Positions 5,121 through 22,894 of a DNA stretch of 64,000 nucleotides are shown piece by piece. The position numbers were made by a program, and so were the translations under genes. Position 1 is the stretch's first letter, and every line of letters begins with the position of its first letter. The stretch spans positions 584,704-648,703 of the forward strand of contig CAVRET010000002.1 of assembly GCA_963720265.1 (NCBI GenBank), written 5' to 3'. This stretch comes from an uncultured bacterium. GTDB taxonomy: Bacteria; Patescibacteriota; Saccharimonadia; UBA4664. Below the pieces are notes generated by a model. The model was not told the DNA's origin. It ran no database searches and worked only from the letters and a program-made list of their open reading frames with translations.

Positions 5121-6044
5121 ATGGCTGCCAAGCGATCTATGGCCTCTTCCGGCATCATTGCCCTAGTAACCGTCGCACTCTTCTATGGTATTACCGCCGT
5201 CCTCGCCCGGTATTTAGCTACCGGCAGCGGCGTATTTGAGCAATGGTATTTGCGCTATGGCATTGCTTTCATTTCGGCTCTTATCATTTTTCACGGCCGC
5301 CTTGATTTCGGGAAGTTCCGCCGGCTGCCCAAAGCCGAATGGCAAATCCTCATATTTCGTTCGCTCGTCGGCGGAGTAGCGGCCGTCGGCCTCTATACGC
5401 TGGCCGCCCAAAATGCCAAAATCGGCGCGGTCGCCTTTATGCAGGCCGTTCCGACCCTGTCGGCCCTGGGTATTCTGCTCATGCACGAAAAACTCACAGC
5501 CCCCAAAGCCGGACTGATCGCCCTGTCGTTTGTGGGCGTGATTATTGCCGCAGTCGAAAACCCCCACGACCTGATGTCGCTTAATATCGGCGAAATCTAC
5601 TCGCTCATCTCCGGTGCCCTGTTTTCGCTCTTTTTCATCACCCGCAAGTGGCACACCGGCGCACTCAATAACCAGGAAATAACCCTAGCCACGTTAGGCC
5701 TTAGTGCAGTCGCAAACTATCTGCTCAGCCTGGTCCTGTACCACCGGCTGTTCCCAGACACTTCCGGCTGGTCGCCGTTCTTTGTGGTCGTGTTGCTGGT
5801 CGCCGGCATCATGGGTGTGGCCAACATTTTCTTACTTAACTTCGGCTTTGAACGAGTCAGCGGCATCATTGCCGGCAACATTATGAATCTCGAACAGCTC
5901 TTCGGCCCCATCTTCGGCTTCATCTTTTATGGCGAAGTGCTGACCGGACGCGAGCTGATCGGCGGCATAATTATTGTCGCCGCCGCCATTGGTATGAACC
6001 GGCTGGGCAATGGCCACGAGCCCGCTGCTGGTGTTCCGGATTAA
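5121..6044 (+). CDS. DMT/EamA-like multi-pass membrane transporter
   Basis: 307 aa, about 10 predicted transmembrane segments, duplicated EamA-like halves. Confidence 0.5.
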   Translation: MAAKRSMASSGIIALVTVALFYGITAVLARYLATGSGVFEQWYLRYGIAFISALIIFHGRLDFGKFRRLPKAEWQILIFRSLVGGVAAVGLYTLAAQNAKIGAVAFMQAVPTLSALGILLMHEKLTAPKAGLIALSFVGVIIAAVENPHDLMSLNIGEIYSLISGALFSLFFITRKWHTGALNNQEITLATLGLSAVANYLLSLVLYHRLFPDTSGWSPFFVVVLLVAGIMGVANIFLLNFGFERVSGIIAGNIMNLEQLFGPIFGFIFYGEVLTGRELIGGIIIVAAAIGMNRLGNGHEPAAGVPD

Positions 6045-6090
6045 AAGCTGAGAGCCCCCGGACAGCCGGAGGTCCCAGCTTTCCGAAGGC

Positions 6091-6588
6091 TCAAATTGCC
6101 TCTCGACCCACCCACCGGAGCGTGTGCTCGGTCAGATCGAGCTCAAATACCACCACCTCTCCCATTCTGATGGGAAAATCGCCCCATCCCGGTTCTCCTG
6201 CCAGTTTGGCCAGCCATCTGATAGCGGGTAGGTGAGTGCAGAGCAGAACTTCCTCGTAGCCCGCGCACGCCTCAAGCACCTGTTCCAGTGTGGGCCTGTA
6301 CTCCAGCCACCTGGCTTCTTTGGGCTCGCACCTGAGTCCGCCGCAGAGTGCTGCGGCGAGCTGCATGGTCCGCCGGTATCCGGAGTGGAGCACGAGCAGC
6401 GTCTTGCCCAGAAGCGTCTGTGCGAAAAATGCAGCGAGCTGTTCCGCGCGCTGCTGTCCGTCTGCGGTCAGCGGACCTTCCAGCGAATCCGTTATCGCAC
6501 GGTGGTCGTAATCCGGGTGCCGGATTGCGCCAACCCGCACCTTGTTTGCCTTTGCCAATAGTCCTCCCTCCAAGGCGGTTCCGGCCAT
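6091..6588 (-). CDS. histidine phosphatase family protein (SixA / phosphoglycerate-mutase-like)
   Basis: N-terminal IRHPDYDH (RH catalytic motif), LTADGQQRAEQLAAFF, LHSGYRRTMQ and a C-terminal CTHLPAI histidine. Confidence 0.5.
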   Translation of the reverse strand: MAGTALEGGLLAKANKVRVGAIRHPDYDHRAITDSLEGPLTADGQQRAEQLAAFFAQTLLGKTLLVLHSGYRRTMQLAAALCGGLRCEPKEARWLEYRPTLEQVLEACAGYEEVLLCTHLPAIRWLAKLAGEPGWGDFPIRMGEVVVFELDLTEHTLRWVGREAI

Positions 6589-6763
6589 ATAACTTTACCG
6601 TCATCTCGAAATTTTACAAATCCGCCAACAACCTCAGGGGTGCAGCCTTGGTCTGAGCAATAATAATTTCTAGCAGCTGCATACAGAAGCGGGCGGACAG
6701 CCCCAGCGAGTTCATCGCCGCGGCCGTCCGCCCGTCGCTTCCGCGGTGCTACCGTGTGCCGGG

Positions 6764-7243
6764 CTAAGCCCAGGTCTCCGTCCGCCCGACGTCCTTGTTC
6801 TTCAGCTTCGTGTTCAGAACGTTGCCCCAGACTTCGAGCACCCCTGTCAGGGTGTCGCCGGTGACCTTCAGTCGGGACACCACCTTGCGCACGAAGGGAT
6901 CCGGGACGTGCACCAGCGAGGCAATAGTGTGGTCGCCGGCGAAAACCCCGGCCTTCCGGCGCACCCGGGCCAGTGTGCCCTGCATGACGATCAGGCACAC
7001 GGTTTCCGTCGTGAGGTAGTCAGGCAGCTTGTCGGTGTAGCCCTTGATGACCACGTACGGGCCGTCGGCACTGAAGTGCACCCGCTCGCCGCCCACGCGC
7101 TCGCGCTTGCCCGCCGAGCTGGTCCGGCGGCAGAAGGCCACGGCAAACTTGTCGGCCAGTGTCTCCGGCTCAGGCAGCGCTATTCTGGCAGCCGCCGCCA
7201 GAGCATCGGTGTCGAGATACAGTTTAATCTTGATGCCGCCCAC
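6764..7243 (-). CDS. hypothetical protein
   Basis: 159-aa ORF; overlapping ORFs 6492..6998(-) and 6746..7309(+) look like spurious Arg/His-rich GC frames. Confidence 0.35.
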   Translation of the reverse strand: MGGIKIKLYLDTDALAAAARIALPEPETLADKFAVAFCRRTSSAGKRERVGGERVHFSADGPYVVIKGYTDKLPDYLTTETVCLIVMQGTLARVRRKAGVFAGDHTIASLVHVPDPFVRKVVSRLKVTGDTLTGVLEVWGNVLNTKLKNKDVGRTETWA

Positions 7244-7651
7244 TGCACGTCCTTACTACTGCTACATCCGAAGAATTCGGACCGGTTGCTTGTAGTGTGT
7301 CCCCGGTAGCAGCCACGGAGAGCTCTCTGGGCACAAACCATTGCGCCGGGAGAGCTCCCCATAGCAAAAAATGTCAAAGGATGACAGTTATTGTAACATA
7401 AAATTTGTATAATTACAATTGGTAGACCAGGCGACCGAAAATTTACACCTGACTGTTAAGGAGTCCAGGCGCTGGAGACGGATAATAGGCTGCGATTCAA
7501 ACGTTTCAAAACCTAGAAGTCAGGATAAGTTGGGCCGCTTACAGACGATAAATGTCCCCATCCACAAATTTCACCACACCGTCACCAATCGCGCTAACCA
7601 TATCACCGTCTACCGCAAGCGCCGTACCATCCGGCAGACCATACACGGTAC

Positions 7652-8287: not shown

Positions 8288-8362
8288 TGGTAGCCCCACG
8301 GGGAGTCGAACCCCGGTTGCCAGGATGAAAACCTGGTGTCCTAACCGCTAGACGATGGGGCC
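8288..8362 (-). tRNA. tRNA-Glu (anticodon UUC)
   Basis: Reverse complement GGCCCCATCGTCTAGCGGTTAGGACACCAGGTTTTCATCCTGGCAACCGGGGTTCGACTCCCCGTGGGGCTACCA forms a cloverleaf, has a TTC anticodon in a 7-nt loop, a GTTCGACTCC T-arm and an encoded CCA. Confidence 0.85.
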
Positions 8363-8453: not shown

Positions 8454-9029
8454 ATGAAAGATTTAGACAGCTTTTCTATCGAGTCCGACCAGATCGTGCT
8501 GCTCACCTATCGGGACGGCACCAACCGCCGGGCACTCCGGGCCGATCTGCCTCAATTACTGGCCAAAGCCGATCTCAAACGTGTCCACGCCGCCTATCGC
8601 CTGCGTCACAATTATCGCGACACGCTACCGCCCTGGCTTCGCGCTCTTGCGCTCACGGTTATCGTGCTTAGTGCCGGCCTCGGCAGCATGAAAGTGGTCA
8701 GCACGGTTATACATCCGGCCACGCACACGATACGCCATATTGCCGACACCGCCGGCACGAGCGGTGAAGTGCTCGATGCCAACGCCAATCAACCGTCAGG
8801 TGATAGTGCCACCGCCTCAAATTCCGCCCTCGCCGCACCGTCCGTCCCGCAACCGGCTGTCAATCAGCCGGCCATGCCGAATCTATCCACGCCCGCGCCA
8901 AGCCCCATCAAGCTTCCGCTCGGCGTAACTGTGCCCGCTCCCACCGCACTCGTTCCCACTGTGGTTCAAGCAGTTACCCAGCCGGTCGCACACACGGTTA
9001 CTCATGCTCTGAATTCGCTCGGGCTCTAG
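8454..9029 (+). CDS. hypothetical membrane protein with a Pro/Ala-rich C-terminus
   Basis: 191 aa, one hydrophobic helix (ALALTVIVLSAGLGS), low-complexity tail. Confidence 0.35.
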   Translation: MKDLDSFSIESDQIVLLTYRDGTNRRALRADLPQLLAKADLKRVHAAYRLRHNYRDTLPPWLRALALTVIVLSAGLGSMKVVSTVIHPATHTIRHIADTAGTSGEVLDANANQPSGDSATASNSALAAPSVPQPAVNQPAMPNLSTPAPSPIKLPLGVTVPAPTALVPTVVQAVTQPVAHTVTHALNSLGL

Positions 9030-9480: not shown

Positions 9481-10921
9481 CGGTGCGAACCTGCTGAAGC
9501 AGGCGGGCACGTACCGCCACCGGCCGGGAGGGTGCGATCATGCACCCACCCGGCCCGGCCGCAAATTACGTTGCAATTATTCATAAACGGAAAACGGGGC
9601 CTCACCAAAAGTGGCGAGGACCCCGAAAGAAAGGGGAGATTGGCCCGAGCATAGCCCAGGTTACTCGGGCCACCCCCGCGACGCGTTACCCGTGGTTCCT
9701 AGGCACCGTCTGGATCCTGTGCACCTCGACTCATCAGAGGCTGCACATGACGGTATTGCCCGTCGGGCGATGATGCGGCCGCGTTTTCAGATTTTGCGCA
9801 CCAGTAGCCAGTACATCAGCGACCGGATCCTAGGTACCTCTTGCACCCCCCGCGTTCGGAGGCTGCCCAAATCGGGCCCCTGGAGGCATCAGGGTTTTTG
9901 GGTGTAAGGGATATTTGGTCGGCGCAGGGCACGACTCCTTCTCCCTTGCGCGCAAGGCCATCTGCAGAATTATCCTGCACAATCAGCCTCACCCAGGCAG
10001 TAATTCCCAGGTCACGAACCCGGCGAACTCTACACTCGCGCGCCAGCTCGAGACTAAGATTATCCTCGAAAGGACCCCGGCAGTATAGGTAAAGCTACCA
10101 TCATTGTCAATAAAATTCCCAACGAAAAAGGGCCTCGCTAATGCGAGAGCCCTGTCTGTTTCTCGAGCGCCTAGGAAGGCTCTCAAGAAAGTGGTGGGGA
10201 GGAGCGAGCATATCTCGGTGCTCACTCCAACCCCCGAACGTGGCGGCTTCACCCTAAGGGTCGTGTATCTCTGCCGTTTCTTGGGCGTATCCCAGGGTTT
10301 CCCCGGGTGATCATCGCCTGGCAGTTTCTTGCCCTTTTGGGTCCCGGCATGCCGCCGTACCTAGTGTCACCGGTGCTCCGGTCCGAGTTCCTCTCTACCT
10401 GGAGGCTGAAGGTTGGAAGAGCCAGCCGTCACGGCCAAGCCAACTCTCCCCGTACACACCACGGCATCTTCGGCATACAAGCCCGAAGAGTCCACAGTGT
10501 TCAAGACCGGTACCCCGAGGGGCTGGCCCGAAGGCCTCCGGAGCCGTGTGTCTAGCACCTGGCAGGCGCTGGACGTTCTCGTCGTCGTGCCCATCGGGCG
10601 TGTATGACCCCGCGAGCCTGGGTCCCGATCTTGCCGCTCCACCCTGGGAGCGACCATTCCCCGGCCTCACCGATCGCTTCAACACTTGGTGCCAAATCTA
10701 TCGCACTTCGTGCAAACGCCTCGGAAATGCCGGTACTGCCGCGCGATATAAACCATTAACAGAACTTTGTCAACTCTTTTTACAAGCTTTCCCCCAACAA
10801 CACTTTTGCTTATTCATTATCCCAATCTCTAGCTCAAGCCAAAAACCATTTGGAGTTTTGCACTTGTCAGATCGCAAATCGAGTGGATACGATAAGATTA
10901 CAATTAAAGGTGAGGTGTCCT

Positions 10922-11506
10922 ATGAGTTCTCGTGCCATAGCAATAACCCGCGCTGTCTCCGTCATTGGCGGTACGACAGCGCTGATCGTCGCTGCAACCT
11001 TTGCAGCTGTGTCATCAAATCCGGTCACGATATCGGGCATTAGCCTGGCATCAAGTGACGTCCAGGCCCTAAATGTCTACGACTTCACTGGAAATAGCTT
11101 CACAGGAGACACCAGCAACCCTGGCAACACTGGTGCCATAAATGCCGACCTGACAACCTCGACACCGGGAACGCAGTACCCGTTCTATCTGCAAAACACA
11201 AGCGGCACAAGTCTTAACATATCGGCCACAGCCAATCCAACCGCTAGTGGAAGCTTAGACCCGAGCAACGTTGAGGTGACGTTCTGGGATGACTCAACCG
11301 GGGCACCCACTCAGCTGGGACAAGGTACGCTCGCAAGCATGCAGGCCGGGACTAGCGTAGCTCTCAATGCGTTGGCCGCTGGCGCCACAGGTAGTAGCAG
11401 TAGCAATGTGGCCGGCAACTACGATGTCAGCTTCAACCTTATCGCTCCCGATTCAAGCTTCGATACGCTGAGTACTGTGCAGTTGATCTTCACGGGTACG
11501 CCGTAA
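10922..11506 (+). CDS. TasA/camelysin-like secreted protein with a SipW-cognate-type signal peptide (paralog 1)
   Basis: The ORF starts at 10850, but a strong SD (AAAGGTGAGGTG) precedes the ATG at 10922. N-terminus MSSRAIAITRAVSVIGGTTALIVAATFAAVSS is followed by a Thr/Ser/Gly-rich beta-type domain. A SipW-type peptidase gene follows immediately. Confidence 0.5.
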   Translation: MSSRAIAITRAVSVIGGTTALIVAATFAAVSSNPVTISGISLASSDVQALNVYDFTGNSFTGDTSNPGNTGAINADLTTSTPGTQYPFYLQNTSGTSLNISATANPTASGSLDPSNVEVTFWDDSTGAPTQLGQGTLASMQAGTSVALNALAAGATGSSSSNVAGNYDVSFNLIAPDSSFDTLSTVQLIFTGTP

Positions 11507-11556: not shown

Positions 11557-12672
11557 ATGAAATTACTTTGGCGCATCGCTAAATTTGCTCTGGTCACTAT
11601 CTACGCTCTGTGCGGGCTCGCACTGTTGCTGTTCTTGGTGCCGGCTACCGGCTTTGAAGCCAAAGAGATCGCCACCGGCAGCATGCGCCCGGCCATTCCA
11701 CCGGGATCCTTAGTCATTATTCACAAGACTCCGCTTAATCAACTCAAGGTCGGCAACGTCGTAACGTACACTAAGTCGGTCAATCCGCCGGTAACGATTA
11801 CGCACCGGATTGTGAAAACGGAAACGAAAAGCGGCGCGCCCTACTTCATCGTTAAAGGCGACGCCAACCCGGCGCCGGATCCGGCTGTGCCCGGCGGGCT
11901 GATTGTGGGCAAGGTCATCTTCCACGCGCCGTATATTGGCCGCGTGGCGATCGATATGCGCAACCCGGTGGTGATCGTGATCATTGTGATCATTCCCGGG
12001 CTGCTGATAATCGCGGATGAAATAATCCGGCTGCGCAAGGCCTTTGGCAGACCCGCGGCGCAAAAGAGCGAACCGACCGAACCGCCCGCACCACCAGCTA
12101 CAAAGGCGAAGGAGGCGGAAGTTGCGGTTAGCGCGGTGAAGAAACCGGTGGCTGTGCCCGCCCGCCGCCGGACAATGGACGGCATGAAGCCCAGACAGCT
12201 GGTGGTTACGCTGGCGGCTTTGTCCATGGTCGCGTTTGGCGTCAAGACAACCTACGCCGAAATTGCCTCAAATGCCGTGACCATTAGTGATATTAAGCTC
12301 TCGACTGGCGGCGGTTCCGGCAGCGGCAGTGGCGGCTCGCCCAGCCCGTCACCCAGCCCCACGACGCCGGCCTGCCCTAGCGGCGACATTTTGATCCAGG
12401 ACACCGGCGCCGGCTCGATCAACATTATTGATTGTAAGAACAAAAAGACCGGCAAGGTCGTGACGATCATTATTAACAACATCGATAACTCAAATAGCCA
12501 GTCGTCGAGCTCCGGCAATGTGAACAGCAGCGGCAACACGAACAGCGGCAATACCGGCAGCGGCAACTCGAGCAACTCCAACTCAACCACAACGACCGTT
12601 AACAATAACAAGCCTTCACCGTCGGCCAGCCCGTCGCCGACGCCGAGCGCGAGTCCGACGCCTCATTCATAA
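11557..12672 (+). CDS. sipW: signal peptidase I, SipW/archaeal type (S26B), with a C-terminal TM, PS linker and Cys-motif extension
   Basis: TGSMRPAIPPGSLVII (Ser box), VVTYTKS, ITHRIV (His box) and FIVKGDANPAPD. C-terminal extension SPSPSPSPTTPACPSGDILIQDTGAGSINIIDCKNKK plus an S/N/T-rich tail. Confidence 0.7.
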   Translation: MKLLWRIAKFALVTIYALCGLALLLFLVPATGFEAKEIATGSMRPAIPPGSLVIIHKTPLNQLKVGNVVTYTKSVNPPVTITHRIVKTETKSGAPYFIVKGDANPAPDPAVPGGLIVGKVIFHAPYIGRVAIDMRNPVVIVIIVIIPGLLIIADEIIRLRKAFGRPAAQKSEPTEPPAPPATKAKEAEVAVSAVKKPVAVPARRRTMDGMKPRQLVVTLAALSMVAFGVKTTYAEIASNAVTISDIKLSTGGGSGSGSGGSPSPSPSPTTPACPSGDILIQDTGAGSINIIDCKNKKTGKVVTIIINNIDNSNSQSSSSGNVNSSGNTNSGNTGSGNSSNSNSTTTTVNNNKPSPSASPSPTPSASPTPHS

Positions 12673-13737: not shown

Positions 13738-14607
13738 TCAGTCCTCAACGTCTTCCTCCTCATTGATGTCATCATCTTCGGGCGCTATGACCTTCTCCCA
13801 AATCTTTCCCGTCATTTCATGTGCCTTGAGTCTCTCGGCCGTCGTAAACCACATTGCGATGTCCTCGCCCCACTTATCTTCAAGCAGTCGTTTGGTAGCT
13901 CGCTTGCAGTAGATCAAATCGGTGAGGGTTGGGCAGATGAACAGGGCGATTGGGTTTGGCTCCTCCTCTCCCGTCTCATCTTGCCAATATCCGTCTTCCA
14001 GGTACTCAATGTAGTTCTTGAGCCGCTTCCTCACTCTTTGGCGGGGCATGGTGGCTTCGATGATTTCGATGAAGCGCGTGGTGTCCGTGAAGTCGTCGTC
14101 GGTCTCAACCGTCCTTTCGAACACCAGCTGCGGGCGGATCAAGTCAGACTCACTCAGGAAATGATAATCGCTCTCTAGGTCGAAGTAGTCGGCTTGGGTG
14201 GTGTATAGATAGTGAACGCGGCTGGTGGTGGCATTTGCTAAGTTACTGTTGTGCATGGTGATGCAACAGTCGGCTACAAGCACACACTGCTCAACGAAGC
14301 CCGGGCTGCGGGACGACTCCCGGTAGCGCTTGCGAAACTCCTCGATCGGGTGACCCTGATTCTCCTTGAGCCATCGGATGCCGTTTAAGCCGAGATAGTA
14401 GATCGCTGGCTTAGATTTTTCTAGAAAGTTAGTTGAGTAAATCCATTCGACGTAATGGTTAGCTCGAAGGTCCGCGAGCCACGCATTAATCCGCTTGTAA
14501 TCTTTATGACCCATAAGCGTTTGTATTTGGATACGATTTAAGAATCTGTATTTGTACAGCAGTTTGAGTATAGTTTGTTGTCTTGGAGTTAGTTGCGGCA
14601 GTTTCAT
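13738..14607 (-). CDS. replication-relaxation family protein (plasmid/ICE-type)
   Basis: N-terminus LTPRQQTILKLLYKYRFLNRIQIQTLM matches the replication-relaxation (PF13814-like) wHTH signature; acidic C-terminus; local GC clearly lower than the flanks. Confidence 0.55.
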   Translation of the reverse strand: MKLPQLTPRQQTILKLLYKYRFLNRIQIQTLMGHKDYKRINAWLADLRANHYVEWIYSTNFLEKSKPAIYYLGLNGIRWLKENQGHPIEEFRKRYRESSRSPGFVEQCVLVADCCITMHNSNLANATTSRVHYLYTTQADYFDLESDYHFLSESDLIRPQLVFERTVETDDDFTDTTRFIEIIEATMPRQRVRKRLKNYIEYLEDGYWQDETGEEEPNPIALFICPTLTDLIYCKRATKRLLEDKWGEDIAMWFTTAERLKAHEMTGKIWEKVIAPEDDDINEEEDVED

Positions 14608-16188: not shown

Positions 16189-18711
16189 TTATGGGAACTG
16201 GCTAAGCAGCAATGCCGAAGTGCTCGTGGCGGCACCGCTGGGAGTTACCTCCATATCAACCCAGTACGTTTGTCCAAGTCCTTTAACATAAATATCCGGA
16301 TAAGCGTTGGGCGGGCCAACGGCAAATACCGCTTGTCCCTGCGTTGATCCACCTTGGTCAAAATTCGCCGGAGCTCCGGACCCGGTATATGGTGAAGTCG
16401 AGCTGGCTGCATAGATACCGGGCACGTGCATCACACCGTTGCGGATGCCGTCGAACGTCGGGCCGGCATTTTGGATGGCGCTTCCCGGGAACTGGTAGGC
16501 CGCGCCGATGTTGAAGTAGTAGAGTTGCTTGGCCGACCAGGCATCGGGAACGGCCGCGCTGTTGTAGACCGACACCCGGTAACGTCCGGCCGGCAGGGTT
16601 ACGCCTGTTAGTGCGCACGATACCCACCCCGAGCCGGCGATACCGCTCCAAGTCGGGCTGGTGTTACTGGCTACTATCGCCTGAGTGTCCTCGTCCCACA
16701 CGTCGCAGCGTGTGGCTAGCTGGGCGGTCCCGGACGGGCTGTAATACCAGATATTATTTACAGCACAGCTTTGGTTGAGCCGCATCTCCGTGCCAACGAC
16801 GTAGTCGACTGCCGAATCCCCGGTGGTGAATTGGTCGCCGTAAAACTTGTTTGGCCACGCGCGGTAGCTGCCGGTATAACCGTTTGGTGTGGTGGTGGTA
16901 ACCTGGATATCGATCCAGAAATTGGCAGAGTTGGATACACCCAAGGGGCACGTCGCAGACGGGTCAGTGCCGCCGACGGTAAATAGTCCTTGGCCGATAT
17001 TGCCACCGCCGTTGTATTGCGATGATCCGTATGACGAGTTGCCATCGGCAAAGGCCAGGATCGGGCCATTTTGGATGCCGTTAGGATGACCGCCTGCACC
17101 AAACGAGTCAACCGCGCCGGTCCCCGCACCGGACGTGTCTGAATCCGGAAAAGCGCCGTTAATGCCGGTCGCGGCAATGTAACGAGTAATTTCCGACAGC
17201 AAAATCGGCATTGGCAGCGCAACGTAATTCCACCCGGTCGACAGCGCGCCCGAGGTCACAACCGAGCCGGGCACCAGTGTTGTATCAGTAAAGTTAAGGG
17301 GGTTGATTTGCCAGAGGGCGAATTTCTGCGGCGCAGTCAAGCCGCCGGTCGGGCAGACCCAGTGCCAATAGCCCTCAAACCAACAATTGCCCTGGAGCGT
17401 CATAAAACCAACACCGGAGATAAAGTTGCCCGAGTACGACACAGGTGTCGTCGGCCCGTTCCCGGGCCGCCCGTCTTGGCCGTCCATGAAGCGGTAATTC
17501 GCCGCCGGCTCCGGCACCACCTCGACGTCGATCCAGTACAGCGCGTAGGTAAGGGTGGCATTGTCCGGATAGGCCCAGGTATTGGAGTTGTATGACATCT
17601 GCCCCGGGGAAGCTGCGCCATAGCCGGGTATGGTCAGAATGTCTTGCGTGAAACCGGAGCCATACATCTGTCCGGTGTTAAACATATTGTCCGAATACGC
17701 CCACCAGATTGAACCGCCGGCATTAAACGTGGCAACTTTATAATCACCGGCCGCGAGCGTGATAGCGGCGCTCCGGTAATCGCACTTAATCCACCCATTG
17801 CCGGCCGTTGCCGCACTACCGTCCACGTTCACCCAGGTTGGTGAGCTGTTGTCCGTCCCGGCTACAACCGTCTGACTGCCAACGTCCCAGACCGCACACC
17901 GCGTCGGCAGCACGGTCGCCCCCGACGGCGAGTAGTGCCAGATGGACGCCAGCTGGGCTGACTGGCTCAGCGAAAATTCCATCCCAAGTGTAAAGCCGCC
18001 GCTGCTGGTGTCCGTCTGAATCGGAGTCGGCACCGTCGGCCAGGCCCGCTCCGGCGTGCCCGGCGGAACCGCATCTGTCACCTGCACATCGAGCCATAAA
18101 AGGTCGTCTGCATCGTTATTATCGGGTTGGTGCACCGAAGCATCGGCGCCGTTGGTATTAAACGGCTGTTGGGGCCAAAACGTGCTCGCGCTGCTGCCGC
18201 TGGGGTAGGCCATAAGCGGCCCATTAGTGATGCCGTTGACGTATGGATCGCCCGACCCGAACTGATTTTTCGTGTCAGGAAAACCAATCGTGGTGCTGTA
18301 GCCTATCGCAGCCACGTATGGAACATTTGGGGTAAGCGGTATGGGGTTACAGGGAACAAAATTCCACGCCCCGGCTGTGAACGCGCCAGTCCACAGCACC
18401 TCAGACGCCGGAATAACGGTAGCGTCGGGGTAATCGTAAGCCTGCCACAAGGCAAAACCAATGTTCGTGTTGGTGTCGCCGCCGGTTGGCACCCACCACC
18501 AGTAGCCGTTGAAATAGAGACCGCCAGCAGTCACATTAAAAACCAGCCCGGCTACATAATTGCCGCTGTACGCCGTTGGTGAACCCGGCGGCTGGGTGCC
18601 TGAGGATCCAACCCCCGGGCGGCCGCTTTGGCCGTCCATTAAGCGGTATGTACTCACGATCTGTACTTCATACTGCAAACAATTATAGTGAGACCAGGCT
18701 ACTAACCACAA
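16189..18711 (-). CDS. large repeat protein with four DUF4082-like domains arranged (A-B)x2; no N-terminal signal peptide in the longest frame
   Basis: 840 aa. Repeats begin YRLMDGQSGRPG / YRFMDGQDGRPG (A) and GMEFSLSQ...IWHYSPSG...RCAVWD / GTEMRLNQ...IWYYSPSG...RCDVWD (B). Each ends in LLWLDVQV / LYWIDVEV / NFWIDIQV / TYWVDMEV, like the NYWVDVVF ending of DUF4082. The ORF-track start is a non-ATG (TTG) codon; the first ATG is at 18639. Confidence 0.55.
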   Translation of the reverse strand: MWLVAWSHYNCLQYEVQIVSTYRLMDGQSGRPGVGSSGTQPPGSPTAYSGNYVAGLVFNVTAGGLYFNGYWWWVPTGGDTNTNIGFALWQAYDYPDATVIPASEVLWTGAFTAGAWNFVPCNPIPLTPNVPYVAAIGYSTTIGFPDTKNQFGSGDPYVNGITNGPLMAYPSGSSASTFWPQQPFNTNGADASVHQPDNNDADDLLWLDVQVTDAVPPGTPERAWPTVPTPIQTDTSSGGFTLGMEFSLSQSAQLASIWHYSPSGATVLPTRCAVWDVGSQTVVAGTDNSSPTWVNVDGSAATAGNGWIKCDYRSAAITLAAGDYKVATFNAGGSIWWAYSDNMFNTGQMYGSGFTQDILTIPGYGAASPGQMSYNSNTWAYPDNATLTYALYWIDVEVVPEPAANYRFMDGQDGRPGNGPTTPVSYSGNFISGVGFMTLQGNCWFEGYWHWVCPTGGLTAPQKFALWQINPLNFTDTTLVPGSVVTSGALSTGWNYVALPMPILLSEITRYIAATGINGAFPDSDTSGAGTGAVDSFGAGGHPNGIQNGPILAFADGNSSYGSSQYNGGGNIGQGLFTVGGTDPSATCPLGVSNSANFWIDIQVTTTTPNGYTGSYRAWPNKFYGDQFTTGDSAVDYVVGTEMRLNQSCAVNNIWYYSPSGTAQLATRCDVWDEDTQAIVASNTSPTWSGIAGSGWVSCALTGVTLPAGRYRVSVYNSAAVPDAWSAKQLYYFNIGAAYQFPGSAIQNAGPTFDGIRNGVMHVPGIYAASSTSPYTGSGAPANFDQGGSTQGQAVFAVGPPNAYPDIYVKGLGQTYWVDMEVTPSGAATSTSALLLSQFP

Positions 18712-18895: not shown

Positions 18896-19471
18896 ATGAC
18901 TAGACGCTCATTTGCAATCGCCCGGGCCGCTGCCACGATCGGCGGTATGGGTGCGTTAATAATTGGAGCGACGATGGCCGCTACCAATGTCGGCACCGTG
19001 GCGCTAACGGCCAATTCGTTCGCGACCACGTCCACCGGCTTACAGATTTCCAACGATGGCAGCACATTTAGTGACACCGCCACCGGGTTTGACTTTGGCA
19101 GTCTTACGACGGGTGGTACATCAACTAAAGAAAACATGTGGCTTCAGGACACCTCAGGTGGCACGACACCACTCGGCATTACGCTCGCTGCGGCCAATGT
19201 CGGCGCGCTCACCGGCCTGAATCCCGCCGACGTCATGGTAAACGTCGAAGCCCACGGCGGCTCCACGGTTGATAGCTTCTCGCTCTCGTCTCTGGAATCA
19301 AGCACACCGGCGCTCAGCGCGGCCAACGAGCCGACCATTGAAAGCGACGGCACGCCGGTCCCGACCGAGTACGACGTTTGGCTGTCACTCAGCTCCGGCG
19401 CCGTTACCGGCACCACGGATCCTACGAGCAACACGTTTGACCTCAACTTCACCGGAACGAGTAGTTCGTAA
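18896..19471 (+). CDS. TasA/camelysin-like secreted protein with a SipW-cognate-type signal peptide (paralog 2)
   Basis: MTRRSFAIARAAATIGGMGALIIGATMAATNVGTVALTANSFATTSTG resembles the SipW-cognate signal class. Thr/Ser/Gly-rich body; followed 3 nt later by the SipW paralog. Confidence 0.5.
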   Translation: MTRRSFAIARAAATIGGMGALIIGATMAATNVGTVALTANSFATTSTGLQISNDGSTFSDTATGFDFGSLTTGGTSTKENMWLQDTSGGTTPLGITLAAANVGALTGLNPADVMVNVEAHGGSTVDSFSLSSLESSTPALSAANEPTIESDGTPVPTEYDVWLSLSSGAVTGTTDPTSNTFDLNFTGTSSS

Positions 19472-19473
19472 CC

Positions 19474-20496
19474 ATGAGGGCGCCTACGCAAGCTTTCCGC
19501 TGGATTGGCCTGGCCGCATACGCGGGCCTCGCCACGCTCATCATCCTCTTTCTCACGCCCATTGGTGGTTGGAAGGCCCTTGATGTGCTCACGGGAAGCA
19601 TGCGTCCGGCAATTCAGCCGGGCGCCCTTGTCATCATTCATCGTGTACCACTCAGTTCGGTTCATCCCGGCAATGTGGTCACCTATGTTAATCCGCACGA
19701 TACCAAAGAGCTGATCACCCACCGGGTGCAGTCAGTCAATAAGGTCAACGGCGTCACCATGGTGACGGTCAAGGGCGATGCCAATACCATCGCCGACCCG
19801 CCGTTTGCCGGGGGCCAAATTCAGGGCCGGGTGGCAACGATTGTGCCCTATGCCGGTCGTGTGCTCAATGTTATCCACAATCCCTATGGTCTGGCGCTGC
19901 TCGTCATTTTGCCGGCCCTATTTGTAATATGGATCGAAGCTAGGAGGTTGATGGGCGTGCTGGTTGAAGAATCCGACCCCGCGACGCCCGGCTCAGGCCG
20001 CTCCGGCGGTCTGCCGGTAGCAATCCGCTTTCGCCGCCCCCGGGAGATTAAGCAAACAGACGCAGGCCGACCACTCGACGGTATGCGCCGGCTCGCGGTG
20101 TTGCCGGTCGTGGCCATCGCCTTGGCCGTATTCGCGGTTGGAGTAACACTGGCCGCGCTCACCAGCACGGTCTCGCTCACCGGCAACAGCTTCCAAACCC
20201 AAGTCAGCGGCTCGCCCAGCCCCACGCCTTCTCCTAGTGGCAGTCCAACTCCATCGCCCTCGGGTTCGCCCACGCCGTCCGGCTCACCGTCGCCGACTGC
20301 TTCACCTTGCCCCACCAATGTCTCAATTACTGACACCGGTGCCGGCTCTACTAACATCGTGCGCTGCACCTCCAAGACCATCATTACCAACTCAAATTCA
20401 AACAACGTAAGCGTTACGAATTCAAATCATCAGTCCACCTCGGGTGGCGGTTCCAGTACCAACACTCAGACCACCAACATTAACGTCACCTATTAG
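19474..20496 (+). CDS. sipW: signal peptidase I, SipW type (paralog 2) with a TM, PS-linker and Cys-motif C-terminal extension
   Basis: TGSMRPAIQPGALVII, VVTYVNP, ITHRVQ, VTVKGDANTIADP; extension SPSPTPSPSGSPTPS...PCPTNVSITDTGAGSTNIVRCTSK. Confidence 0.7.
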   Translation: MRAPTQAFRWIGLAAYAGLATLIILFLTPIGGWKALDVLTGSMRPAIQPGALVIIHRVPLSSVHPGNVVTYVNPHDTKELITHRVQSVNKVNGVTMVTVKGDANTIADPPFAGGQIQGRVATIVPYAGRVLNVIHNPYGLALLVILPALFVIWIEARRLMGVLVEESDPATPGSGRSGGLPVAIRFRRPREIKQTDAGRPLDGMRRLAVLPVVAIALAVFAVGVTLAALTSTVSLTGNSFQTQVSGSPSPTPSPSGSPTPSPSGSPTPSGSPSPTASPCPTNVSITDTGAGSTNIVRCTSKTIITNSNSNNVSVTNSNHQSTSGGGSSTNTQTTNINVTY

Positions 20497-21754: not shown

Positions 21755-22894
21755 ATGCCAAAAACTCGAAATAAAAATCTGCCAGGACGCAATGGTCTCG
21801 GCCGTTATTTGCTGGGCGCTGTGGTGATATTAGCTTCCATTGTCATCGGTCTAGTGGTGGTACACGTGAAAGCGGCCGGGCTGGTTGGGGATCTCAATGA
21901 TGACGGTGTGGTCAATGTGCTTGACTTGTCGATTCTGCTAAGCGACTGGGGGCAAACAAACGCCGCCATTGAGCAAAACCTCGGACAAACCGGGCCCGTT
22001 GGCGTCATTGACCTGTCGATCTTGTTGTCTCACTGGGGGGATACTGCCTCGACACCCACACCTTCGCCCAGCCCGTCCCCAGTCGCGGCAGGTTGTGTCA
22101 GCGGCGGCGTGGTTGCACCGTGCATCGGCGGAGCTTCTACGGGCGCCAGCGGTTGGGGGACACCCATATTTGATGACGAGTTTAATGGGACTAGCCTGAA
22201 TACCAGCAACTGGAGTACAGGGTGGTTTGGTAGCGGAATCACCGGTCCAGTCAATAGCCTTGAAGATGATTGTTATAACCCGGACCTCGTAAGTATTTCC
22301 GGGGGTTATCTTGATGAGCAGATTATTCAACAAACCTGCACTGGGCGGCTTGGATCGGAACCATACTCTGCAGGCTACATAACTTCAATGACCTCGGGTG
22401 GAGGTAGTGACTTGTTCGGCTTCACTTACGGCTTCATAGAAGCCCGTATTTACTTCCCGGCAGCGTCCAACGGTGAAGTTGCCAACTGGCCGGCTTTCTG
22501 GCTACAAAGTCTGCATGACGGCAGCCAAACTGCGCCGAATACGGAAATAGATATCGAGGAAGGCCTGCATGGAGCGCTAAGGTGGCATGTGCTTGGGGCC
22601 GGAGGAACTACGGTTTGTACTGATGGCGACACTGGACCAGGATGGCACACTATCGGCCTTGATTGGCAGCCTGGTTCGGCGACTTTCTACTATGACGGTG
22701 TAGCAGTTGGGAGTACTTGCACAAGTAGTGCGCTTGATCCTGCTAATACTGGAGAAATGAGAATAGCTTTGGGCGAACAGACTAGCGCCACCATTGCAGG
22801 GCCGCAGACCGCACCACAAACAATGCAGACCGATTACGTTCGGGTTTGGCCTACAACTGGTACAGTTTATACATACGATGGCAGCTCAAATTAA
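21755..22894 (+). CDS. secreted glycoside hydrolase family 16 (laminarinase/beta-glucanase-like) with an N-terminal dockerin-like repeat pair
   Basis: N-terminal TM/signal, then DLNDDGVVNVLDLSILLSDWGQT and GPVGVIDLSILLSHWGDT (dockerin type I-like). PSPSPSP linker; GH16 catalytic motif EIDIEE, and FWLQS. Confidence 0.6.
   Translation: MPKTRNKNLPGRNGLGRYLLGAVVILASIVIGLVVVHVKAAGLVGDLNDDGVVNVLDLSILLSDWGQTNAAIEQNLGQTGPVGVIDLSILLSHWGDTASTPTPSPSPSPVAAGCVSGGVVAPCIGGASTGASGWGTPIFDDEFNGTSLNTSNWSTGWFGSGITGPVNSLEDDCYNPDLVSISGGYLDEQIIQQTCTGRLGSEPYSAGYITSMTSGGGSDLFGFTYGFIEARIYFPAASNGEVANWPAFWLQSLHDGSQTAPNTEIDIEEGLHGALRWHVLGAGGTTVCTDGDTGPGWHTIGLDWQPGSATFYYDGVAVGSTCTSSALDPANTGEMRIALGEQTSATIAGPQTAPQTMQTDYVRVWPTTGTVYTYDGSSN

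Follow-up and report, generated by a model that had tools for sequence, protein, structure and literature searches.

Several described systems share features with the gene analysed here, which lies on the minus strand of a 64,000-nucleotide (nt) stretch of DNA from a Saccharimonadia bacterium (hereafter the window, by which the whole stretch and not the gene is meant; positions given without a locus name are counted in it) and encodes a protein of two A-B pairs of related domains without a signal peptide. The units were compared with DUF4082 (PF13313), a Pfam family to which no function is assigned and which receives only two passing mentions in the searchable literature. In close relatives, both kinds of unit, A and B, fit nearly the full PF13313 model, the end of the model corresponds to their YWVDVEV strand, and the fold is all-beta. 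In contrast, the fixed A-B pair of the subfamily, its M-T-T-Y-R-L start, and the C-terminal Phe-Pro (FP) tail and the adaptor of its split form are outside the Pfam definition.

The best structural matches of the second A-B pair (A2-B2) were actinophage tail tips, namely the minor tail protein of Streptomyces phage Issmi, gp20 of Douge (PDB 8zdp) and Bxb1 (PDB 9d93). The likeness extends to metagenomic phage relatives of the window protein, which have no signal peptide, as virion proteins lack them in general, and whose genes come directly behind those for the tape measure and the tail fibre in the tail module. It is limited by template modelling scores (TM-scores) of 0.34 or less and by the absence of sequence similarity to GenBank phages and PHROGs; moreover, the window copy lies on a chromosome without phage genes beside it and carries no virion-attachment domain of its own. 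Domains resembling Mtd_N (PF18454), from the Mtd-type fibres of Bordetella phage BPP-1, and PF26209 are found in phage and Saccharimonadales adaptors, at the N-terminus and the C-terminus respectively; however, it is the partner and not the window protein that bears them, and the window encodes no such partner.

Twin-arginine translocation (Tat) hitchhikers, such as HybOC and PaoABC of E. coli, are to our knowledge cofactor-containing redox enzymes. Tat hitchhiking is established, and only one subunit of the complex bears the signal (PMC4273604, PMC10924467, PMC6708511). The signal-less A-B protein of actinomycetes, which ends in FFP, is encoded beside a small subunit with a Tat signal and coupled to it, and a fused version exists; a signal-less subunit coupled to a Tat-signal subunit is a genetic signature of co-export (PMC4273604, PMC10924467). 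For this pair co-export is a prediction from the genes, and the window copy has no Tat-signal partner. The likeness to the SipW-TasA/TapA system of Bacillus is confined to the genomic adjacency of SipW-like and TasA-like genes, whereas the window protein has neither a signal peptide nor a TasA/camelysin-like domain, and the cassettes do not co-occur with its relatives in related loci.

The reading that we favour, with a probability of about 55%, is that the window protein is a partner-dependent tip protein of the A-B-FP-tail type whose adaptor was lost or separated, and which persists as an intact, unpaired glycan- or receptor-binding module. Several features appear to be undescribed, namely the fixed pairing of A with B, the conserved tail at the C-terminus, the adaptor with its phiTE_241_C-like domain, and the occurrence of the module in fused, split and phage-fibre forms.

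Domain architecture, predicted fold and start codon

Four related repeats, internally duplicated in the order (A-B)x2, had been proposed for this open reading frame (ORF) from the letters alone, and the alignments bear this out. In a self-alignment of 445 columns (E=1e-54), residues 22-404 are 35% identical to residues 406-828, and a profile of the A units cut from 120 homologues matches the corresponding B profile in HHalign with a probability of 99.0% (E=3.4e-18, 150 columns). Since the A-B halves are duplicated and A is homologous to B, the protein consists of four homologous domains. The motifs quoted in the original prediction are all present: YRLMDGQSGRPG opens A1 and YRFMDGQDGRPG opens A2, GMEFSLSQS is found in B1 and GTEMRLNQS in B2, and the unit-terminal strands LWLDVQV, YWIDVEV, FWIDIQV and YWVDMEV follow the pattern [LYF]W[LIV]D[VIM][QE]V in 4/4 units.

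The further proposal that the repeats are DUF4082 domains holds through relatives, and a direct match of significance was not obtained. The whole protein gave no match to Pfam at E<=1, and NCBIfam likewise gave nothing useful; when the units were scanned singly, only A2 matched PF13313 (14.3 bits, E=0.04), and the second half reached 23.7 bits (E=5.3e-5), under the Pfam gathering threshold of 28.4 bits. Relatives at 40-62% identity exceed the threshold (P0002, 36.2 bits; P0065, 57.1 bits; P0030, 49.4 bits; P0003, 72.5 bits), the first of them by the B1 unit of a protein that is 62% identical to the window protein and has the same architecture. By unit, the matches of 30-72 bits fall on A units in P0065, P0012, P0049 and P0050 and on B units in P0030, P0003 and P0020. 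Among the aligned family members, 40/82 matched PF13313 (E<=1e-3), and no other Pfam family was matched by them. Judged by this homology between sequences, the window units are divergent DUF4082 domains, so that the call is right in substance, though only by way of the relatives.

AlphaFold2 (AF2) models of the A2-B2 half (predicted local distance difference test, pLDDT, 86.3; predicted template modelling score, pTM, 0.87) and of B2 alone (pLDDT 86.4, pTM 0.85) were all-beta. The combination that characterizes DUF4082, a beta-sandwich of about 140-200 residues with a terminal strand of the form aromatic-W-V/I-D-V, is seen in the AF2 models and in all four units. A profile search of PDB sequences returned 0 matches at E<=1, and the remote matches of the single-domain model in Foldseek were PHR domains, the lectin-like domain of Cwp84, CBM6, F5/8-type C domains and viral capsid accessory proteins; as only remote beta-sandwich matches were obtained, a specific ligand cannot be inferred. 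Neither a catalytic motif nor an enzyme fold was detected by the Pfam scan or by Foldseek of the models.

The original prediction had stated that a Sec signal is lacking, and neither a Sec nor a Tat signal can be read from the sequence with any candidate start. It had also called the start uncertain: the longest frame does begin with TTG, as it said, and TTG 18711 is nevertheless disfavoured as the true start. The internal ATG 18639, which it offered as an alternative and which is the start in the public annotation of the protein (P0001, 816 amino acids (aa)), fits the conserved N-terminus of the relatives less well than GTG 18657. Translation from this GTG would give fM-S-T-Y-R-L-M-D-G, and dozens of relatives begin with M-[TSA]-[TSN]-Y-R-[LF] (for example MTTYRLMDG, MALYRLMDG and MSNYRLF); the internal A2 unit opens with a conserved Y-R as well, which is therefore part of the domain. 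L107, a close relative, has a GTG in the equivalent position, 3 nt past the stop codon of the upstream gene, and the window is homologous to it at the DNA level (78% over 78 nt) from 18662 on, 5 nt ahead of GTG 18657, with no homology further upstream. The true start is likely to be GTG 18657 (822 aa), on the evidence of these comparisons. A consensus promoter scan of the upstream region revealed no full promoter, and the -35 candidate TTGTGG fits the consensus at 3/6 positions.

Adaptor genes and the C-terminal tail in relatives

Searched exhaustively with phmmer, 1.84 billion cluster representatives yielded 547 matches at E<=1e-3, and the A-B subfamily is thus modest in size. The homologue search found 313 homologues, and the comparison of architectures rests on the best 120 of them. 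Of these, 80/120 are proteins of ~545 aa with a Tat signal (…SRRKIFKGAVGVAAAGA…), a phiTE_241_C-like domain of ~115 residues (given the working name N-dom) and an A-B pair, and they end exactly at …YWVDVEVTPS. The remaining homologues among the best 120 have no signal peptide, begin directly with A and carry C-terminal extensions. The window protein has the features of this second group, with an M-x-x-Y-R-[LF] start, no signal peptide, A-B pairs and a C-terminal SALLLSQFP, in which Gln stands at position -3; this position is Phe in 31/41 relatives and Leu in the closest ones.

Two relatives of ~1400 aa (P0003/P0005; L107, 2993-7192) have extra B units between the first and the last A-B pair, and into them is inserted a non-DUF4082 domain resembling both a 223-aa FFP-tailed protein of locus L106, treated below, and the N-terminal extension of P0024. 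From such sequence arrangements, the family is seen to shuffle tip domains.

A survey of one genome per GTDB species recovered 50 loci, 50/50 of them in metagenome-assembled genomes of Actinomycetota (Acidimicrobiaceae, Streptosporangiaceae, Trebonia and Mycobacteriales), and 45 viral contigs of IMG/VR encode relatives; a query with the single protein had returned no loci from the genome and viral collections, and an alignment query was needed for matches. Gene order was surveyed by calling and clustering ORFs in all 105 fetched loci (our own crude calls, in high-GC DNA), and adaptors were detected with a hidden Markov model (HMM) of N-dom.

The Actinomycetota loci contain, in one locus, the fused gene (Tat signal, N-dom, A-B) together with one or two signal-less A-B genes of ~400 aa. 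The signal-less A-B-FFP gene is directly preceded by a gene for a protein of 160-200 aa with a Tat signal and N-dom, usually with overlapping stop and start codons, and at least 18 of these small actinobacterial partners bear a [ST]RR[KRN][IV][FL] motif followed by a hydrophobic region. The same three elements thus occur fused or split, a Rosetta-stone relationship, which implies joint action of the two proteins. The loci are cell-envelope polysaccharide clusters, with genes for GT2 and GT4/GT1 glycosyltransferases, a Wzy_C-like protein, PIG-L, a C-methyltransferase, a nucleotidyl-transferase, an epimerase and a polysaccharide pyruvyl-transferase.

Fused and split versions stand side by side in loci L014-L054 (for example L030, 2296-6357, and L023, 7194-11585), and a small lipoprotein-like gene (cluster c11) typically lies between them in the Actinomycetota loci. 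The same duality occurs without any Tat signal in a genome of 49% GC (L007, 6617-11362, plus strand), which encodes both a 686-aa protein (an N-terminal domain, N-dom and A-B) and a pair consisting of a 302-aa protein (the same N-terminal domain and N-dom) and a 453-aa A-B protein ending in …FLKFFP.

The tail follows a Pro- or Ser-rich linker and has the consensus S-G-A-F-L-[ATV]-F-F-P (41 relatives), with the variants G-L-L-M-A-x-F-P and L-L-A-L-F-P in phages and in members of the Candidate Phyla Radiation (CPR). An N-dom gene immediately upstream was found for 21/39 tailed versus 1/38 tail-less unfused A-B proteins (Fisher p=3.5e-7, kinship being ignored), and the lone tail-less protein with an upstream adaptor ends in FLAFLP, a variant of the tail. 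Among the fused proteins, 1/24 has the tail (p=2.3e-5, kinship again being ignored).

The adaptor family was searched in a collection of 5.8 billion proteins, and the best 120 of 302 matches were examined. Its members often match Pfam PF26209 (Phage_phiTE_241_C), sometimes together with Mtd_N, and among these best 120 the named members are all from Candidatus Saccharimonadales, in which the adaptor is small and its N-terminus resembles Mtd_N. An adaptor gene stands immediately upstream in 3/3 of the closest relatives with visible context (L002, 159 and 821 aa for adaptor and A-B protein; L107, 210 and 1399 aa; phage L005, 671 and 841 aa). In a further Saccharimonadales genome (L106, GCA_035945435.1), the 180-aa adaptor P0257 is abutted by a 223-aa non-DUF4082 protein that ends in …SAMIGFFP; the tail is therefore tied to the adaptor relationship rather than to DUF4082 domains.

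On a single contig of this genome, several small adaptor-like proteins with the sequence 'MARLPTPGGDxGxWGxxLNxFL' are encoded, each followed by a different tip protein. The pairs comprise a 219-aa protein with a 570-aa fibre-like protein and the 180-aa protein with the 223-aa protein ending in …MIGFFP; there is also a solitary 623-aa A-B protein ending in …FMNFFP, and all of these (L106, 1178-3558 and 14179-15393, both on the minus strand, and 5439-7310 on the plus strand) are dispersed among ordinary cellular genes.

A phage context was found for several relatives, with tail-module placement in L005, L009 and L098. The only such relative with the (A-B)x2-tail layout of the window protein, P0009 (43% identity, 99% query coverage), is preceded by a 671-aa protein with Mtd_N and phiTE_241_C domains, an SPP1-type portal being encoded on the same contig, and the N-terminus of this neighbour matches many tail-fibre, tail-spike and hyaluronidase PHROGs (E 1e-16 to 1e-10). 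The gene order in L098 is a tape-measure protein (E=2.4e-32), a 473-aa N-dom protein and a 408-aa A-B-tail protein; P0022 sits among phage genes including terminase, portal and capsid, and P0010 adjoins genes for Gp80, an amidase and a phage lysozyme. Foldseek of the A2-B2 model against BFVD gave 30 matches at E<=1e-3, mostly minor tail proteins of phages of Streptomyces, Mycobacterium, Gordonia and Arthrobacter, with TM-scores of only 0.1-0.34; the top PDB matches were the central fibre of mycobacteriophage Douge, the tail tip of Bxb1 and the baseplate of phi812, all with low TM-scores.

The apparently unpaired window copy and its possible explanations

A pyruvate kinase gene 5.6 kb from the window gene has named best matches, at 60-75% identity, only in Candidatus Saccharimonadia, Saccharimonadales and Saccharibacteria, and the window is thus part of a Saccharibacteria genome. 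Upstream of the window gene, a 238-nt spacer separates it from a divergent TasA-like gene. No adaptor remnant was found in this spacer or on both strands up to 19400, the comparison with the TasA-like gene giving only low-complexity noise, and no Tat-signal partner was found in the 64-kb window. The best 120 of 302 adaptor homologues include none encoded by the 1,108,292-bp contig, though other proteins of that contig are in the collection searched. No diversity-generating retroelement was seen near the window gene. Both halves of the protein keep all 21 family-invariant and most near-invariant residues, and the GC content of the gene (0.589) and that of its third codon positions (GC3, 0.676) are like those of housekeeping genes, on which ground a recent horizontal transfer of the window gene was rejected. 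The window copy is most likely intact and compositionally native but lost or separated from its adaptor, as far as composition, conservation and gene content can tell.

Under the favoured explanation, which starts from the observed architecture, homology, gene-order associations and absence of the partner, the adaptor would supply the address for the signal-less A-B-tail protein, either as a phage tail-fibre N-terminus or as a Tat signal. In phages, the adaptor would be the tail-fibre or tail-spike protein encoded beside the tape-measure gene and the A-B protein the distal, receptor-binding part; in Actinomycetota, the split A-B-FFP protein and the Tat adaptor would be exported together, folded into a complex, by Tat hitchhiking. 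The FP tail would mark the split state and dock the tip protein onto the N-dom of the adaptor. The A-B pairs may bind a cell-envelope glycan, because of their distal position in phage fibres, the polysaccharide loci of actinobacteria, and a generic beta-sandwich like those of lectins and carbohydrate-binding modules. As for the window copy, it may have a divergent partner elsewhere, work alone, or be on its way to loss, and the intact gene counts against the last. Since the signal-less state is common to the family, the missing signal peptide is inherited and is not an oddity of the window gene. What had looked odd is thereby removed, being a family trait that partner-dependent delivery would explain, and hypotheses are obtained that can be tested, namely docking of the tail to the adaptor and Tat hitchhiking of a non-redox cargo.

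Several results weigh against this explanation. N-dom was not found in any of the six frames of the 64 kb (tblastn and the unfiltered N-dom HMM), and neither phage structural genes (PHROGs/Pfam) nor a polysaccharide cluster lie beside the window gene, so the phage tail-module placement of relatives is not repeated there. A divergent adaptor elsewhere in the genome is possible, as the best 120 of 302 adaptor matches were seen. For 18 tailed proteins, that of the window included, no adjacent adaptor was detected; several of these are second tandem copies or failures of ORF calling, and in L010 the public gene calls show a small gene. The association of tail and adaptor was derived from our own crude ORF calls and from related sequences, so that its p-values overstate independence, and the rule has exceptions, in that the fused protein of L054 is tailed and the adaptor of L038 itself has an FFP tail and no A-B. 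The window protein itself stays below the Pfam threshold for DUF4082 when tested directly, tblastn against 50,697 GenBank phage records revealed no relative of it, and PHROGs contain no family for it. Glycan binding in particular was inferred from a fold whose basis is generic and from weak structural matches, the rest being context, and Foldseek of the single-domain model against PDB gave no match at E<=1e-3 and TM-scores of 0.5 or less.

Saccharibacteria in cultivation live as epibionts on Actinobacteria (PMC10633639), and their recognition of hosts is largely unexplained (PMC11623550). As the organism is a Saccharimonadia bacterium, the window protein could be an autonomous surface adhesin, which would reach the surface by a non-classical route or with an unrecognised partner and bind the envelope polysaccharide of an Actinomycetota host, the epibiont thus re-using a phage-type receptor-binding module. 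The distribution of the family agrees with this, since outside CPR-like contigs it occurs only in Actinomycetota genomes (the 50/50 loci) and in phage contigs of similarly high GC; so do the intact gene with its family-invariant residues and native composition, and the several adaptor/tip pairs among the cellular genes of another Saccharimonadales genome. We nevertheless consider such an adhesin unlikely, as the protein has no signal peptide, adaptor or known export determinant, bears a polar Gln at tail position -3 instead of the Phe of 31/41 relatives, and would belong to a kind of tail-fibre-like adhesin of which the literature on Saccharibacteria holds no report. A bolder proposal would be that Saccharibacteria domesticated the phage-type adaptor and FP-tailed tip system as modular host-recognition adhesins, in which A-B tips bind cell-wall glycans of Actinomycetota hosts and the FP tail is an undescribed docking signal. 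If true, the FP tail would let signal-less tips mount on a phage fibre, a Tat-exported adaptor or a surface structure of an epibiont; we hold this to be decidedly unlikely, and the literature searched contained nothing relevant on such modules in Saccharibacteria. The family is common to Actinomycetota, likely to phages thereof, and to Saccharibacteria, and its members are for this reason candidates for host recognition by epibionts (PMC11623550).

It is quite improbable that the gene is a non-functional relic of a two-gene cassette of a phage or mobile element, left after loss of the adaptor: the adaptor that all three closest relatives have is missing, a Replic_Relax mobile-element gene is 1.6 kb off and the tail is slightly degenerate, whereas the 2.5-kb reading frame is uninterrupted, the invariant and most near-invariant residues are kept in both halves, the AF2 fold is confident, and the host-like composition speaks for long residence without decay. 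The original prediction had also considered an unusual export route or a cytoplasmic location, and neither is needed where the signal-less state is common to the whole adaptor-paired subfamily. A cytoplasmic protein, for example one that binds or processes a sugar polymer precursor, would account for the missing signal peptide, whichever candidate start is used, for its absence from many family members, and for the position of actinobacterial relatives within polysaccharide biosynthesis clusters; it is made very improbable by the fusion of the A-B unit behind Tat signals in most relatives and by its presence in phage tail modules, which place it outside the cytoplasm, as well as by the absence of a detected catalytic motif or enzyme fold. 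Finally, the position between two pairs of TasA-like and SipW-like genes had suggested that the protein is a cargo or partner of these cassettes. Nothing besides this position favours the suggestion, which is barely credible: the cassette clusters (c34/c35) are confined to the window and to L001, a locus of identical sequence, and occur in 0 of ~100 other loci that encode relatives, the protein has no hydrophobic N-terminal region with any start and hence no signal peptide for the peptidase to cut, the adjacent cassette is transcribed divergently, the cassettes are old paralogues that do not frame a recent insertion, and the consistent partner of the relatives is the N-dom adaptor instead.

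Feature coordinates and neighbouring genes

Coordinates of the window gene, its parts and the genes around it
Feature	Position	Strand	Basis or remark
ORF	16189-18711	-	840 codons from TTG
Coding sequence from the proposed start codon GTG, 822 aa	16189-18657	-	Stop codon at 16189-16191
Domain A1, DUF4082-type beta-sandwich, ORF residues 19-215	18067-18657	-	Self-alignment; A units of P0065, P0012, P0049 and P0050 match PF13313 above threshold; A versus B in HHalign, 99%
Domain B1, DUF4082-type beta-sandwich, ORF residues 216-405	17497-18066	-	Self-alignment; orthologous B1 of P0002 matches PF13313 (36.2 bits, residues 208-356)
Domain A2, ORF residues 406-610	16882-17496	-	Weak direct PF13313 match (14.3 bits, E=0.04); A2-B2 half all-beta as modelled by AF2
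Domain B2, ORF residues 611-824	16240-16881	-	Best PF13313 stretch of the second half (residues 228-314 of the half); AF2 single-domain model
Ser/Thr/Ala linker and C-terminal FP tail, SGAATSTSALLLSQFP	16192-16239	-	Low-confidence, unstructured end in AF2; tail consensus of 41 relatives
In-frame extension upstream from TTG 18711, probably untranslated	18658-18711	-	Present in no relative; L107 homology stops at 18662; upstream of, or overlapping, the TATAAT hexamer
Perfect TATAAT hexamer, possible -10 box, 24 nt before the GTG	18682-18687	-	Read by eye; weak evidence
GAAG, weak Shine-Dalgarno-like element, 8 nt before GTG 18657	18666-18669	-	Suggested by eye
Terminator-like hairpin, ~90 nt past the stop codon	16086-16102	-	Consensus scan; number of sites equals chance expectation, hence weak
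TasA-like genes (three)	8454-9029, 10850-11506, 18896-19471	+	
SipW-like signal-peptidase genes (two)	11557-12672, 19474-20496	+	
tRNA-Glu(TTC)	8288-8362	-	Edge of the cassette-bearing variable region
Replic_Relax gene	13738-14607	-	PF13814, 51 bits
ORF of 275 aa	20544-21371	-	GC 0.452, GC3 0.41
GH16-like protein	21755-22894	+	

The two SipW/TasA cassettes are paralogues at 35-39% identity, and so low an identity marks them as a tandem family of long standing, not as the product of a recent duplication; a recent cassette duplication framing an insertion was rejected for the same reason. The SipW-like peptidases are extended far beyond the usual C-terminus, by a second membrane segment and by low-complexity tails rich in Ser, Thr, Pro and Asn, and their S26 domain is barely detected by Pfam (16.8 bits). 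The tRNA-Glu gene at the edge of the cassette-bearing variable region is not an obvious attachment site, and a classical tRNA-integrated island is disfavoured, the 3' end of the gene facing the wrong way to border the region.

The Replic_Relax gene also matches replication-initiation families of PHROGs and, to judge from these family matches, is a trace of a plasmid, an integrative and conjugative element or a phage-like element. It is flanked by genes for a 249-aa protein and a 372-aa membrane protein, both without family matches. The 275-aa ORF, which has no Pfam or PHROG match, was probably acquired horizontally in recent times, its GC content lying far below a window average of 0.577. The GH16-like protein encoded farther along the plus strand has a membrane anchor at its N-terminus, and two dockerin-like DLNDDGVVNVLDLSILLSDWG repeats precede its catalytic domain.

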